This document shows, piece by piece, positions 1,525 through 60,698 of a DNA stretch of 64,000 bases; the first letter of the stretch is position 1; every line of letters begins with the position of its first letter. Below the pieces are notes generated by a model, which worked only from the letters and a program-made list of their open reading frames with translations, did no database searches and was not told the DNA's origin. The position numbers were made by a program, and so were the translations under genes. This DNA comes from Patescibacteria group bacterium (lineage in GTDB: Bacteria; Patescibacteriota; Minisyncoccia; Phycocordibacterales; UBA1006): NCBI GenBank assembly GCA_028286885.1, contig JAQBQS010000003.1:44607-108606 (forward strand), in the 5' to 3' direction.

Positions 1525-2547
1525 ATGGAAGTTCCTGATATTACAAATTACGAAGGTTCGGCTCCTCCCCCTGCTAAGGGGGAGGCTGGGAGGGGGTTTG
1601 AAAATACAAACCCCCTCCTAACCCTCCCCTTAGCAGGTGAGGGAACAGGACAGCCGAAATCGCGCAAACGCAGGTTTGCGTTTTTTGGCTTAGTCGCGGG
1701 ACTTGCCGCCATTGTCGTTATTTCGTTCGGAATCGCCGGACGTCCTCCCTCTGACTTTGTTCCCGAAACGGTGGTTGTTATTCCCGGCAATGCATCTACA
1801 AAATCAGCCGGCGACATTCTCGTTAAAAATCACATCATCAGGTCGAGCAGCATCTTCCAGGCCATCATCCAAACGATCCTCGGCGATCGCCCCGTCATCG
1901 CCGGACAGTTCCAGTTTGACAAACCGGTCAGCGTCCTGAAAGCCGCGCAAATCGTTACGGGCGGATCATTCGGACGTACGCAGATCAAGCTTACAATTCC
2001 CGAAGGTTCAAGCAATGCCGACATTTCAAAAATCGTTCTCAAGCAGATTCCGGATTTCAATGAGAAAACATTTCTCAAGAATTCAGGACCATTCCAAGGA
2101 AACTTGTTCCCTGAGACGTATTTAGTTTTCAAAACCATTACTCCTGACGAATTGATTGCACGAATGCGGCAGGAATTCGACAAGAAAATTTCAGCGCTCA
2201 AGTCTGATATTTCGGCATCGAGACATGATCAAGAAGACCTCGTAAATATGGCTGCCATCTTGGAGAAAGAAGCCAAGAATTCAAGTGACGCTGCGCGCAT
2301 CGCGGGAATTCTGTGGCACCGCATTGCAATCGGAATGCCGCTTCAAGTAGATGCCGCGCCTGTAACATACAAGGAAAAAGGATTTCCGAAAGTGCCGATC
2401 GGCAATCCCGGCGTTGCGATGATCAATGCGGCGATTCATCCCGTTTCATCCGACTATTTGTATTATCTGTACGACAAGAAAGGCGTGATCCATTATGCCA
2501 AGACGTACGCGGGGCATCAGGCGAACATCGAAAAATATCTGAGGTAA
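1525..2547 (+). CDS. mltG: endolytic murein transglycosylase, MltG/YceG family
   Basis: N-terminal TM (FAFFGLVAGLAAIVVISFGIAG) plus the C-terminal YceG-like signature LQVDAAPVTY...PIGNPGVAMINAAIHP. ATG at 1525 chosen; the ORF opens at 1474 but that would overlap the upstream gene. Confidence 0.7.
   Translation: MEVPDITNYEGSAPPPAKGEAGRGFENTNPLLTLPLAGEGTGQPKSRKRRFAFFGLVAGLAAIVVISFGIAGRPPSDFVPETVVVIPGNASTKSAGDILVKNHIIRSSSIFQAIIQTILGDRPVIAGQFQFDKPVSVLKAAQIVTGGSFGRTQIKLTIPEGSSNADISKIVLKQIPDFNEKTFLKNSGPFQGNLFPETYLVFKTITPDELIARMRQEFDKKISALKSDISASRHDQEDLVNMAAILEKEAKNSSDAARIAGILWHRIAIGMPLQVDAAPVTYKEKGFPKVPIGNPGVAMINAAIHPVSSDYLYYLYDKKGVIHYAKTYAGHQANIEKYLR
1556..1641. repeat. GC-rich nested palindromic element (~86 bp) lying in-frame inside the mltG N-terminal coding region
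   Basis: CCTCCCCCTGCTAAGGGGGAGGCTGGGAGGGGGTTT-(loop)-AAACCCCCTCCTAACCCTCCCCTTAGCAGGTGAGGG. The arms are near-perfect reverse complements and far more GC-rich than the flanks. The terminal CCTCACC resembles the DUF559-element termini. Confidence 0.6.
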
Positions 2548-38859: not shown

Positions 38860-38939
38860 AAATAGAAAAAGTAAAAGCAAGTGAAAACTTGCTTTTTTAT
38901 TTAAACATGATATAAAATAACAAATCAAAAACTAAATAC

Positions 38940-39194
38940 ATGAAAAAACCTTTTGTTATTCTCGCTGCTATCTTGGTTGTAGCAAGTTCCGGCTGCAGCC
39001 ATAGGAAGGCTGAAGATCCGAAGAAGTATTCGGATTACGATATCAGATTCGCCAAATCACAAGCTTATTTTACCGCTGCGCTTATTGCTAATGGACGCGC
39101 ATCAAATGCCGGGTCGCATGAAGAAGTCGACAGATTTTACAGCCTGTATGAGCAATTCAGAGACAGCGCTAATGTTTATCGCGAACCAAACTAA
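38940..39194 (+). CDS. small hypothetical lipoprotein
   Basis: MKKPFVILAAILVVASSGC lipobox. 84 aa. Confidence 0.4.
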   Translation: MKKPFVILAAILVVASSGCSHRKAEDPKKYSDYDIRFAKSQAYFTAALIANGRASNAGSHEEVDRFYSLYEQFRDSANVYREPN

Positions 39195-39241
39195 CCGTCA
39201 GAATTATTTAGAGCAGGTCGAGAGACTTGCTTTTTTATTAC

Positions 39242-39734
39242 CTCACCCGTCTCGCTTCGCGAGCCACCCTCTCCTCTGCGAGGAGAGGGACGAACTTTAG
39301 ATTTTCTTTAAATATGGTTGTTAAAATTCCATTCATGGGAATTATCAATGGAATTCAAAATAAAGAAAAAAGAAGATTTCTTCGCAAAAACCAAACACTT
39401 GAGGAAGAATTTGTTTGGAGAAACCTACGAGGGAACAAAATGGGAATGAAATGGCGACGGCAAGTAAGTATTGGTCAGTATGTCGCAGATTTTTACTGCA
39501 CGGCAAGAAAGCTTGTTTTAGAGATCGATGGCGACCAACATCTTGCTGAGAGTGCTAGAGGATATGATGAAATTAGGACTCATTTTTTCGAAATAAATGG
39601 AATTAAAGTAATTCGGATTTCTAATAAAGAACTTAATAGCGACCCTCAGATTCTTTATCAGAAGATAAAAGATTTCGAACGCTGACCCTCTCCTCGCAGA
39701 GGAGAGGGTGGTTTGCGCAGCAAACCGGGTGAGG
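39242..39734. mobile_element. MITE-like element: DUF559 endonuclease gene flanked by ~55-bp GC-rich nested-palindrome terminal inverted repeats
   Basis: Left IR 39242..39296 CCTCACCCGTCTCGCTTCGCGAGCCACCCTCTCCTCTGCGAGGAGAGGGACGAAC. Right IR 39677..39734 GAACGCTGACCCTCTCCTCGCAGAGGAGAGGGTGGTTTGCGCAGCAAACCGGGTGAGG. The arms are reverse complements, and each contains the internal palindrome CCCTCTCCTCTGCGAGGAGAGGG. Host terminators flank both ends. Confidence 0.6.
39314..39685 (+). CDS. DUF559 (Vsr-like endonuclease fold) domain protein
   Basis: FVWRNLRGNKMGMKWRRQVSIGQYVADFYCTARKLVLEIDGDQH...IKVIRISNKEL matches the DUF559 core. The stop codon lies inside the right IR. Confidence 0.65.
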   Translation: MVVKIPFMGIINGIQNKEKRRFLRKNQTLEEEFVWRNLRGNKMGMKWRRQVSIGQYVADFYCTARKLVLEIDGDQHLAESARGYDEIRTHFFEINGIKVIRISNKELNSDPQILYQKIKDFER

Positions 39735-39742
39735 TTTGTAAA

Positions 39743-39766
39743 AGGCGACTAACATCGCCTTTTTTC
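39743..39766 (+). terminator. intrinsic terminator
   Basis: aaggcgactaacatcgcctttttt, followed by cttgccaaaaa. Confidence 0.6.
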
Positions 39767-39950
39767 TTGCCAAAAATTATTTTCATGTCGTTTTAACGAA
39801 TATAAGCAAGTTATGCACAAGAATCTTCAAATGGAACATTGTGGAACTTGGTGGGATGGCGTACGATATAAGTGGGATGAAGTGGCATACACTTGTGAAC
39901 GCCGATAAATCCTGGATCCCGGATCAAGTCCGGGATGACGAACAATTATT

Positions 39951-40385
39951 ATGTTAATCGGAGAATACCGGCACACGCTGGACGAAAAGAATCGATTGTC
40001 GCTCCCGGCGAAATTTCGCAAGGAGCTCGGCAAAAAAATTATCATGACGCGAGGTCTCGATCGCTGTCTTTTCGTATATCCGGTTGCCGAGTGGAAGAAA
40101 TTTTCCGAACAGCTCGCATCGCTCTCGATCGGTTCGGCCGAGGGGCGAGGTTTCTCGCGAGCGATGCTCGGAGGCGCCATGGAGGTTGATGTGGACGGCA
40201 GCGGCCGCGTGCTCGTGCCCGACCATTTGAAATCCTACGGATCGCTCTCGGCGAAAGTCGTCGTGGCAGGAATCCATAATCGCGTCGAGCTTTGGAACGA
40301 GGAGGCTTGGAACTCGTACACCACAGGCGTCGAGAAGGAAGCGAATTCATTGGCTCAGAAATTAGCAGATATCGGAATGATCTAG
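39951..40385 (+). CDS. mraZ: transcriptional regulator MraZ
   Basis: MLIGEYRHTLDEKNRLSLPAKFRKEL and a second repeat, GRVLVPDHLKSY. It heads the dcw cluster. Confidence 0.85.
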   Translation: MLIGEYRHTLDEKNRLSLPAKFRKELGKKIIMTRGLDRCLFVYPVAEWKKFSEQLASLSIGSAEGRGFSRAMLGGAMEVDVDGSGRVLVPDHLKSYGSLSAKVVVAGIHNRVELWNEEAWNSYTTGVEKEANSLAQKLADIGMI

Positions 40386-40389
40386 TTGT

Positions 40390-41304
40390 ATGCACATTCC
40401 CGTACTGTTTAATGAATCAATAGAAGCTCTTTCAATAAAAAAAGACGGGACATACGTTGACGGGACGCTCGGAGGGGCAGGGCATGCCTGTGAAATTGCC
40501 AGGCATTTGGGGCCAGATGGAACGTTGATTGGTTTCGATCTGGATTCGAATGCAATAGCTCGCGCCAAGGAAAAACTTACCCCCTCCGCGATACGCTCCG
40601 GCGGGTCAGGGCAGATGTGCAAAGTCATTCTTGTTCAAGAAAACTTCAGGAATCTCGATAAAGTTCTTGAAGAACATGATATCCAAGAAGTTGAGGGAAT
40701 ATTTCTTGATTTGGGATGGTCGTCATTTCAGATTGCCGACGCGAGCAGGGGGCTATCTTTCCAAGAAGACGGGCCTCTGAAAATGACATTGAAGGACAAT
40801 CCGGGCGAGGACGATGTGACGGCTTATGACATCGTGAACTCATGGGACGAGAAAACGATCGCGGATACGATCTACACCTACGGCGACGAGCGCGCATCGC
40901 GCAGAATTGCCAAGGCAATCGTGGATTGGCGCCGCAAAAAGCCGATTATCACGACGTTCGACTTAGTTTCCGTCATCGAATCGGTAATGCCAAGAAAGCC
41001 TTGGATGAAAACCAATCCGGCAACGAAAACGTTTCAGGCCCTTCGCATCGCAACGAATGATGAATACGGGGCGCTCGGCGAAACGCTTGAGAAAGGATTC
41101 GAAAGGCTCAAGCAAAGCGGGCGATTCGCGATCATTTCATTCCACTCGGGCGAGGATCGCATTGTCAAAAATTTCTTCCGCGACAAGGCGCATGCCGATC
41201 TTGCAACCTTGATTACGAAAAAACCAATCACGCCAAGCGAAGCGGAACTCGCAGTCAATCCGCGTGCCCGAAGTTCGAAGCTGCGCATCTTAGAAAAAAT
41301 ATGA
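40390..41304 (+). CDS. rsmH: 16S rRNA (cytosine1402-N4)-methyltransferase RsmH
   Basis: HIPVLFNESIEAL...YVDGTLGGAGHA...GFDLD is the RsmH/MraW signature. Confidence 0.9.
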   Translation: MHIPVLFNESIEALSIKKDGTYVDGTLGGAGHACEIARHLGPDGTLIGFDLDSNAIARAKEKLTPSAIRSGGSGQMCKVILVQENFRNLDKVLEEHDIQEVEGIFLDLGWSSFQIADASRGLSFQEDGPLKMTLKDNPGEDDVTAYDIVNSWDEKTIADTIYTYGDERASRRIAKAIVDWRRKKPIITTFDLVSVIESVMPRKPWMKTNPATKTFQALRIATNDEYGALGETLEKGFERLKQSGRFAIISFHSGEDRIVKNFFRDKAHADLATLITKKPITPSEAELAVNPRARSSKLRILEKI

Positions 41305-41617: not shown

Positions 41618-41775
41618 TACCCCCTCGCCTCGCAGAGCCTCGGCATTCCCCCTAGAAGGGGGAGACAGTTCTGCTGGATTATTTTTTAAAATCTTTTTTT
41701 CAGCTAAATCACAACTTCCAGTTATGCGAAGCTGTCCTCCCCTTATAGGGGAGGTGCCCGTAGGGCGGAGGGGTA
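41618..41775. repeat. cargo-less GC-rich nested-palindrome element (related to the DUF559 element)
   Basis: Left TACCCCCTCGCCTCGCAGAGCCTCGGCATTCCCCCTAGAAGGGGGAGACAG. Right CTGTCCTCCCCTTATAGGGGAGGTGCCCGTAGGGCGGAGGGGTA. The arms are inverted repeats separated by a 63-bp AT-rich spacer, filling the ftsL-ftsI intergenic region. Confidence 0.55.
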
Positions 41776-56628: not shown

Positions 56629-56700
56629 TGACCTTACGGGGAATCGAACCCCGCTTCCAGGAATGAGAATCCTGTGTCCTAGCCGATAGACGATAAGGCC
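56629..56700 (-). tRNA. tRNA-Glu (anticodon CTC)
   Basis: Minus-strand sequence GGCCTTATCGTCTATCGGCTAGGACACAGGATTCTCATTCCTGGAAGCGGGGTTCGATTCCCCGTAAGGTCA folds as a cloverleaf: acceptor GGCCTTA/TAAGGTC, anticodon stem CAGGA/TCCTG, loop TTCTCAT, T-arm CGGGG-TTCGATT-CCCCG. Architecture parallels E. coli tRNA-Glu. CCA is not encoded. Confidence 0.75.
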
Positions 56701-60627: not shown

Positions 60628-60698
60628 TTGCCAGACTAGGACTCGAACCTAGATAGTCGGTACCAGAAACCGAAGTCCTACCATTAGACGATCTGGCA
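60628..60698 (-). tRNA. tRNA-Gln (anticodon CTG)
   Basis: Minus-strand sequence TGCCAGATCGTCTAATGGTAGGACTTCGGTTTCTGGTACCGACTATCTAGGTTCGAGTCCTAGTCTGGCAA. Perfect 7-bp acceptor with U1:A72, anticodon stem TCGGT/ACCGA, loop TTCTGGT, T-arm CTAGG-TTCGAGT-CCTAG. Confidence 0.75.

Follow-up and report, generated by a model that had tools for sequence, protein, structure and literature searches.

Knowledge of the G/C-rich boxC repeats goes back to the 1990s; they are present in hundreds of genomes and are a mark of unstable regions (PMC4666352). They were described as intrastrand triplex motifs (TM, "TMECO") by Holder et al. 2015 (PMC4666352), the older names being boxC and PIT elements (Hoyne et al. 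2000, as cited there), and in each of them a C-rich arm and a loop are followed by a G-rich arm, then by a short loop and a further G-rich block that is the mirror image of the G-arm. According to the same study, there are 3610 TMs in 262 proteobacterial genomes, and E. coli K-12 carries 23, five as inverted pairs; the surroundings of TMs vary strongly between strains, with genomic instability. Triplex formation was obtained in vitro, for the E. coli motif only, and a stable triplex was unsupported by in vivo footprinting, while earlier experiments quoted there gave neither promoter nor terminator activity for PIT/TM elements. The absence of a transposase or other mobility function near TMs was stated explicitly (PMC4666352), and neither an enzyme nor an origin is known to have been ascribed to them. 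Here we describe positions 39240-39735 of a 64,000-nt stretch of a metagenome-assembled Patescibacteria group bacterium genome (assembly GCA_028286885.1, contig JAQBQS010000003.1; the whole stretch is hereafter called the window), where two repeats of this class enclose a gene of DUF559, itself a very large orphan family. We consider it probable (roughly 0.6) that this locus is one copy of a widespread selfish, homing-like DUF559-TM cassette, which is perhaps the autonomous partner of the boxC/TM repeats. Both components are known separately and their connection appears to be new, as far as the literature found: publications on DUF559, ycjD, boxC and EDxHD enzymes gave no link of DUF559 to TM repeats, and no name for the cassette was found in the searchable literature.

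DUF559 proteins, among them YcjD of E. coli and NGO0050 (PDB 3HRL), are annotated as being of unknown function, and no published link to flanking repeats or mobility was found for them. The window protein is a clear sequence member with the D...ExDG..H core present, and its gene has two arms, unlike the E. coli copy, which has a TM on its 3′ side only. A Vsr-like catalytic core is shared with the EDxHD homing endonucleases (I-Bth0305I, PDB 3R3P; Taylor et al. 2011, PMC3239194), and both can be regarded as selfish nuclease genes for which a conserved host gene offers one site, filled in some alleles and empty in others. EDxHD enzymes have an extra DNA-binding domain, and they reside in inteins, between the halves of split inteins or in group I introns (PMC3239194), whereas the DUF559 cassette has no intron or intein, has structured DNA repeats as its boundaries and is retained in the host protein. 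At the window cassette, no Rfam intron match and no intein domain (Pfam) was found. While homing genes either accompany a self-splicing intron or intein or stand free without terminal repeats, this cassette is bounded by inverted repeats. In the REP/RAYT system ("REPtron"), a single-copy gene lies between inverted copies of a short palindromic repeat, many cargo-less copies of which are scattered over the genome, with clusters elsewhere, and RAYT is an HUH/Y1 transposase acting on single-stranded hairpins. The cassette shares with it a gene flanked by inverted copies of the dispersed palindromic repeat of the genome, but its enzyme is a predicted Vsr-fold nuclease, not HUH/Y1, and it also invades coding sequences. 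For the Rickettsia palindromic elements, which are in-frame insertions resembling miniature inverted-repeat transposable elements (MITEs), we know of no associated enzyme gene, and their sequence and taxonomic range are unlike those of the DUF559 cassette.

A DUF559 gene between two triplex-motif arms

The initial annotation of the window had reported a 123-aa DUF559 open reading frame (ORF) between reverse-complementary flanks with two hairpins each, and this observation was confirmed by sequence reading (38900-40100), repeat search and folding. Each arm is composed of two hairpins (hp1 and hp2) and one G-rich box (Table 1). The arms are inverted and GC-rich as had been claimed, with a length of ~50 nt in place of the ~55 bp given; an inverted-repeat search returned arms of 61 nt with 82% complementarity and a separation of 396 nt. 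The hp1 pattern had exactly 2 occurrences in the 64-kb window, compared to 0 in 100 shuffles. When folded as single-stranded DNA (ssDNA), each arm formed two hairpins (z = -4.0 for the left and -5.0 for the right), and none of 200 shuffles was as stable. The hp2 stems of the two window arms are unlike in sequence, yet pairing is perfect in each, and the same was seen in all 8 of the 8 elements with hp2 in both arms. This suggests that a DNA hairpin is selected for, or that repair tends towards one. On the G-rich strand, the loops of hp1 and hp2 (39277-39279, 39696-39698 and 39717-39719 in the window, and at other loci too) most often read GAA or GCA and are closed by C-G. GAA and GCA loops closed by C-G form unusually stable DNA mini-hairpins, and this loop type hints at an ssDNA structure rather than an RNA structure. 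A G-quadruplex on the G-rich strand was considered and set aside; many family members have four G-tracts, but just two G3 tracts occur in the window arms. DUF559 is the only ORF within the cassette, and its stop codon TGA (39683-39685) shares its last base with the first base of the right arm, in agreement with the initial annotation. An in-frame ATG at 39335 agrees with the MGIING start of the nearest homologues.

Judged by their sequence, the window arms belong to the described G/C-rich intrastrand triplex-motif class (boxC/PIT/TM) and are not the private terminal repeat that they had been taken for. What they share with it is the order of C-arm, loop, G-arm and mirror G-block, the occurrence as singles and inverted pairs, and flanks that vary between relatives. 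Both arms have a 10-bp stem with a 3-nt loop, and for the third block our detector counted 8-9 allowed triplets between GGGTGAGGT and the reversed G-arm; GGGTGAGG can pair antiparallel on GAGGAGAGGG with G*G, T*A and A*A triplets alone. The second loop, which is short (1-6 nt) in the published motif (PMC4666352), measures 16-18 nt in the DUF559 arms, where it holds hp2, and 2-3 nt in a cargo-less pair at 1564-1643. As published, TMs lie only between genes in E. coli, whereas repeats of the window type lie on either side of a nuclease gene and also occur within ORFs, where they are translated. Dispersed copies were present, with 6 units in the 64-kb window and 7 units in 20 kb of a sister genome, compared to 2 units in 367 kb of mraZ loci of relatives, and the two cargo-less relatives that had been noticed in the window were both recovered as TM pairs.

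The window ORF matched Pfam PF04480 with E = 1.3e-25 (89.9 bits, against a gathering cut-off of 20.6), its Pfam domain matches being DUF559 and MTES_1575 only. NCBIfam PRK09767 was matched with E = 1.2e-18, yet under the cut-off of that model. In an alignment of 14 homologues, D59 (in YVADF), E70 and D72 (in E-x-D-G-x-x-H) were invariant and H76 nearly invariant, and this conserved core aligned to 3HRL and to the ExNG of 3R3P. The nearest PDB structure was 3HRL (NGO0050 of N. gonorrhoeae; E = 4e-23), and the profile reached the catalytic domain of I-Bth0305I (3R3P) with E = 0.004 at the ExDG segment. Because of these matches to 3HRL and 3R3P we assigned the protein to the Vsr-fold PD-(D/E)xK enzymes, and a published classification places Vsr, DUF559 and I-Bth0305I in one clade. 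We infer that DUF559 may be an active nuclease. An exhaustive profile search (E <= 1e-3) gave 35,008 cluster representatives at 50% identity. Only 2 viral loci carried DUF559, and 45 of 72,556 plasmid records did so, mostly chromids or mislabelled chromosomes; phage or plasmid vehicles as the main route were ruled out by this rarity. One family member of 377 aa is made up of three tandem, partly degenerate DUF559 domains.

Cassettes in host genes and the history of the window copy

The repeat-DUF559-repeat unit is a discrete insertion that recurs across phyla, in both intergenic and intragenic positions. At many loci, one reading frame runs through arm, DUF559 and second arm into the host protein, and the arms translated in frame encode Pro/Ser...Gly/Glu linker peptides. 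According to Pfam, DUF559 separates the catalytic from the anticodon domain in ValRS, the 3′-binding from the helicase domain in PriA, and DEAD from Helicase_C in HrpA, and in HsdM it comes after N6_Mtase. In an MmeI-type methyltransferase it sits mid-domain, so that MmeI_Mtase is cut into two stretches. We surveyed embedded domains in the best 150 of the 35,008 cluster representatives, and 21 of these 150 were longer than 300 aa and had DUF559 embedded with PSP...GEG-type flanking peptides. Their hosts included HsdS (five times), HsdR (three times), Eco57I and Type ISP enzymes, AroA, Ham1/RdgB, MiaA, RecG, HolB and an acetyltransferase. On a Synechocystis plasmid, the cassette breaks a DUF1156 methylase into two ORFs and is not in frame. 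The possibility that DUF559 is a genuine fused methyltransferase domain was ruled out by the split MmeI_Mtase domain together with the repeat-derived linkers, and where DUF559 proteins are labelled, for instance, "cytosine methyltransferase" or "intein-containing", cassette insertions are probably the cause of the artefact.

About half of the in-gene insertions, taken from the best 150 representatives and six of the loci, were in restriction-modification (R-M) genes. The insertion points there were directly after the conserved FKSWFxDFDP in HsdS, the N-terminus of HsdR, HsdM, and the MmeI, Eco57I, Type ISP and DUF1156 methylases. One Eco57I-type methylase of 1214 aa holds two separate DUF559 cassettes.

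The association of DUF559 with TMs was followed over 80 DUF559 loci, which were obtained by a scan of one genome per species for relatives of the protein and which span Patescibacteria, Proteobacteria, Cyanobacteria, Clostridia, Planctomycetes, Chloroflexi and others. When each left flank was aligned to its reverse-complemented right counterpart, inverted repeats of the same build as the window arms were seen at most of them. With a custom detector for the pattern of C-arm, G-arm and mirror box, a TM unit was found in the flanks of 64 of the 80 loci, on both sides in 49, compared to 0-2 units in five block-shuffled sets. TM density was 3.0/kb beside the gene and 0.155/kb beyond 220-260 nt, which is a 19-fold local enrichment. 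Several loci missed by the detector, mostly from Clostridia, still had a hairpin-hairpin-TGAGGG layout. TM-type units were also present near the N. gonorrhoeae locus encoding 3HRL, the only solved DUF559 structure. In 20 loci, mostly of Proteobacteria, the G-boxes faced the gene (plus-minus polarity), and in the window and most of its close Patescibacteria-type relatives they faced outward (minus-plus polarity); most other lineages had the plus-minus type.

Filled and empty alleles of one site were found in hrpA of Gallionellaceae. Two genomes carried the full repeat-DUF559-repeat block at the ...KHF site, and most hrpA alleles were without it. In the empty alleles, which belong to close relatives with 85-87% protein identity, the sequence runs ...KHF(xx)APILQVSGRTYP and holds no remnant of a repeat, and the DNA of the empty target allele is ...AAACATTTTTTGAATGCGCCC... 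At the DNA level the indel is bounded exactly by the outer base of the hp1 hairpins. Since the empty alleles lack the repeats too, repeats and gene must have arrived together. One filled allele (L179) had 88-90% nucleotide identity to an empty one (L180), compared to 80% to the other filled allele (L024), and the cassette cores of L179 and L024 were 75% identical. Such a pattern calls for a precise loss or for two separate gains at the site, and a homing-type element would be expected to produce it. One Gallionellaceae HrpA without the cassette has another repeat-like in-frame insertion, ...HSGEGRNPVEKN...SGLRRNDG..., at alignment residues ~750-800.

The hrpA junctions also bear on the possibility that the cassette is a cut-and-paste transposon, with the arms as terminal inverted repeats, DUF559 as a novel PD-(D/E)xK-type transposase that cuts at the hairpin ends and reinserts the element, and the cargo-less pairs as MITE-like derivatives. 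Terminal inverted repeats are indeed present and bound the hrpA indel at the hairpin base, but no target-site duplication of >=4 bp was evident at the filled/empty junctions. Such duplications were looked for in the ftsL-ftsI spacer as well, and none convincing was found in either place. Insertion into naive sites without any repeat would suit transposition; the filling of the same hrpA site in two divergent hosts fits homing or allele transfer better than random transposition. A cargo-less pair with a short core exists (41619-41774), yet in E. coli, where copy number was measured, there were at most two copies per genome, and arm polarity is inverted between lineages. No recognised transposase (DDE, HUH, serine or tyrosine) accompanies DUF559, and to our knowledge no strand-transfer chemistry has been found in Vsr-fold enzymes. 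A classical transposon with terminal inverted repeats is disfavoured because of the missing target-site duplication and the lineage-variable arm polarity, and we regard this explanation as improbable.

For the window copy, synteny with relatives starts only in the mraZ promoter region. A sister genome (ENA GROS21-1; MraZ 89% and RsmH 87% identical) has a DUF559 gene with 67% protein identity at the same site upstream of mraZ, with arms in minus-plus polarity. In comparison, 80 further mraZ loci from metagenomes (MraZ identity 51-88%) had no DUF559, and TM units were very sparse in them (0.005/kb). Thus, the cassette is an insertion specific to a small lineage, since the sister shares the site and the 80 loci are without it. 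These loci align only from the mraZ promoter inward. Upstream genes differ in every relative, the sister genome included, so that the comparison for the window cassette covers its presence or absence upstream of mraZ and not an exact junction. Repeats of this kind were not unique to the locus, and relatives without them were also without the gene. The left hp2 of the window (GGCTCGC..GCGAGAC) matches the right hp2 of the sister, and the right hp2 of the window (GGTTTGC) resembles the left hp2 of the sister (GGTTTC), while the direction of the DUF559 gene is the same in both. The arms are thus swapped relative to the gene, which implies at least 2 inversion or re-insertion events, and this comparison of sequences shows that cassette arms can recombine. 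The swap fits a published 14-fold enrichment of DUF559 among predicted programmed-inversion targets. As far as these comparisons go, the window copy appears to be old and retained, not recently mobile. No recent multi-site copies of one protein were seen, and the contigs found for two of the proteins (P0014 and P0003) had a single context each.

The claim of a small mobile or homing-like element gained support from the cross-phylum architecture, the hrpA indel, the splitting of host domains and the 80 mraZ loci without the cassette. Of the mobility proposed, the insertion unit stands, recent movement in the window lineage does not, and DUF559 as the driver is something that we infer. The earlier interpretation was broadly right.

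These results also concern the opposite reading, in which nothing moves and the hairpins are local regulatory or insulating structures, such as terminators or mRNA stabilisers, around a conserved housekeeping nuclease gene. The position of the cassette between two terminators, as initially annotated, was recovered (Table 1) and could suggest such a role, but PIT/TM elements had neither promoter nor terminator activity in the experiments cited above. Synteny with the sister genome and, upstream of pheT, across Bradyrhizobium species would suit a conserved gene; against this, the cassette interrupts and splits unrelated host genes and domains, and it is absent from the 80 mraZ loci and most hrpA alleles. 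The filled and empty alleles and the in-gene insertions largely refute this reading, which we hold to be highly improbable. In six Bradyrhizobium-type genomes the cassette is apparently at one locus with common upstream sequence, and in one of them pheT begins directly downstream of it. This indicates that the cassette can be stably inherited across a genus.

In this lineage the cargo-less units turned out to be dynamic. MltG homologues of several relatives already have one in-frame unit (PLPNPPLQGEG), and the window mltG gained a second, inverted unit, a 69-nt in-frame insertion that corresponds to the (+) unit and is absent from the sister genome, while the older unit was altered to match the new one. 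In the ftsL-ftsI spacer, the window has a pair in minus-plus polarity like the DUF559 cassette, and the sister has the (-) unit only; a possible duplication of ~11 nt beside the lone TM is ambiguous. The sister genome (L177, 2945-2982 and 10018-10055) has two identical 38-nt TM units, ACCTCTCCCCAACCCTCCCCTGCAAGGGGAGGGAGCCG, located 7 kb apart in uvrA and mltG, which suggests recent spread of a cargo-less unit. In the RsmH gene of the window, a 9-aa GC-rich in-frame insertion (40575-40612; PSAIRSGGSGQM region, CCCCCTCCGCGATACGCTCCGGCGGGTCAGGG) is lacking in the sister genome and may be a degenerate repeat-derived insertion.

Proposed homing-like copying and the passenger alternative

In the homing-like mechanism that we propose, the nuclease would nick or cut DNA at structured repeats or at the empty target allele, and recombinational repair from a filled copy would then copy the cassette into the cut site. 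Such copying would leave no target duplication and, because the arms are inverted repeats, would be independent of orientation. Recombination between the arms could invert the gene or swap the arms, and cargo-less units and pairs would be non-autonomous relatives or footprints. That DUF559 cuts drive the copying of the cassette, and that cargo-less repeats depend on DUF559, is the presumed part of this scheme. Homing-like copying is favoured over transposition because targets are not duplicated, polarity varies, copy number is low and one site has been used repeatedly.

A broader proposal, which we advance tentatively and at somewhat less than even odds, is that DUF559 is the missing mobilising enzyme of boxC/PIT/TM, and that the two jointly form a new class of prokaryotic mobile elements. 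In this class, non-B DNA at the ends of the element (hairpin, triplex or cruciform) would be what the Vsr-fold nuclease recognises, and the element would spread by break repair without target duplication, seeding cargo-less repeats. Invasion of essential and R-M genes would be in frame, with repeat-encoded Pro/Gly linkers taking the place of an intron or intein. If DUF559 and TM belong together, both orphans would acquire a function, one origin of genome instability, as well as of domains inserted in frame into essential genes, would be accounted for, R-M genes would appear as a preferred target, and a nuclease that possibly reads DNA structure would become available for study.

The main rival is that TM/boxC units are unstable or mobile alone, through host replication and repair acting on non-B DNA, with DUF559 as cargo whose real job is cellular, for example as a defence- or repair-associated nuclease linked to R-M systems. 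It is kept alive by TMs that persist and multiply without a nearby DUF559. TMs far outnumber DUF559 genes, but a 19-fold local enrichment at one small gene needs a specific link, and DUF559 lay between repeats at every cassette examined, these loci having been collected by a DUF559 search and not by a survey of TM pairs. New TM units arose without a new DUF559 when the window is compared to its sister (mltG and the ftsL-ftsI spacer), and the identical units in the sister uvrA and mltG belong to the same line of evidence; against this, empty hrpA alleles are also without repeats. A defence role would suit the share of R-M genes among the in-gene insertions and the PADLOC result, which gave weak matches only (mREase_II and DpdF), yet the insertions in valS, priA, recG and aroA have no defence logic. 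On balance, we consider the passenger role rather unlikely.

E. coli was used as a cross-check. In 3378 of 5426 complete E. coli genomes ycjD was found, essentially as a single copy and at most in 2 places per genome, and TM units ranged from 1 to 27 per genome. According to published tables, strains of phylogroups A, B1 and C have 19-30 TMs, those of D have 12-15, of E 10-11, of F 6-7 and of B2 only 1-2. In phylogroups A, B1 and C, according to another publication, ycjD stands where the eefRABCD efflux operon would otherwise be. The distribution of ycjD and of TM counts over the phylogroups thus agrees with a link between nuclease and repeat number. In K-12 (NC_000913 1351039-1351830), a boxC/TM unit lies between ycjD and fabI, on the 3′ side of ycjD only. 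A degenerate TM unit is found at the ycjD stop codon, and a partial duplicate of the gene's 3′ end is followed by the boxC/TM unit. As ycjD is single-copy with a TM on the 3′ side only, E. coli was ruled out as a model for active copies. The ycjD start in K-12 lies partly within a perfect 18-bp palindrome, which has no relation to TMs.

Several points weigh against a homing-like DUF559-TM cassette. TMs persist in ycjD-negative E. coli, so TM spread is not strictly dependent on a resident DUF559, and the correlation of ycjD with TM counts is phylogenetically confounded and based on two papers, not on per-genome counts. By the detector, 16 of the 80 DUF559 loci were without TM, and the lineage-dependent arm polarity is hard to square with recognition of a fixed terminus. 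The window copy is old, as indicated by 67% identity to the sister copy at the same site, and gives no sign of current activity. Homing enzymes with sequence specificity would be expected to be larger than a nuclease of ~100 aa that has no additional DNA-binding domain, and in the literature no published nuclease activity or DNA specificity was found for DUF559 proteins.

Features of the window

The coordinates of the cassette, its boundaries and the cargo-less pairs are listed in Table 1. On one side the neighbour of the cassette is a small lipoprotein-like gene, and on the other side follow mraZ, rsmH, ftsL and ftsI.

Table 1. Cassette parts, flanking hairpins and cargo-less TM pairs in the window
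Feature	Positions	Strand	Remarks
Intrinsic terminator of the upstream 84-aa gene	39210-39233	(+)	found by terminator scan; whole element taken as 39210-39236; left outer boundary of the cassette
Left arm	39240-39289	(-)	one TM/boxC-type unit
Left arm, G-box complement ACCTCACCC	39240-39248		given as plus-strand reading
Left arm, inner hairpin hp2, CTCGC-ttc-GCGAG	39251-39263		within hp2 segment 39249-39265
Left arm, outer hairpin hp1, CCCTCTCCTC-tgc-GAGGAGAGGG	39267-39289		
TTTAGATTTTCTT	39296-39308	(+)	sole non-coding arm-to-ORF stretch also found in the sister-genome cassette
DUF559 ORF	39314-39685	(+)	123 aa from ATG 39314; 116 aa from alternative ATG 39335
Right arm	39685-39735	(+)	TM unit: hp1, hp2, G-box GGGTGAGGT
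Right arm, hp1, (A)CCCTCTCCTC-gca-GAGGAGAGGG(T)			
Right arm, hp2, GGTTTGC-gca-GCAAACC	39710-39726		followed by GGGTGAGG(T)
Terminator-like hairpin GGCGA-ctaaca-TCGCC, then T6	39744-39765	(+)	from direct sequence reading and alignment with relatives; unlisted in the terminator scan
Cargo-less inverted TM pair	1564-1597 / 1612-1643	(+) / (-)	in frame, MltG N-terminus; fold z = -7.2
Cargo-less TM pair	41619-41663 / 41736-41774	(-) / (+)	ftsL-ftsI spacer; 72-nt AT-rich spacer between units

TTTAGATTTTCTT is possibly an expression signal of the DUF559 ORF; a scan for the sigma-70 consensus gave no site at the cassette, TTTAGATTTTCTT included. The terminator-like hairpin on the right side is placed between the cassette and the conserved mraZ promoter region. 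A permissive Rfam scan of 39100-39900 returned only a chance sRNA match (E = 0.63) and no known RNA family, and at the gathering threshold Rfam found two tRNAs only in the whole window. These two tRNA genes, at 56629-56700 and 60628-60698 on the minus strand, are unconnected with the cassette. Upstream of mraZ, 48 nt of repeated GTGGGATG boxes (39838-39885) are kept in all relatives examined and are probably the MraZ operator and promoter region, where synteny with relatives starts.

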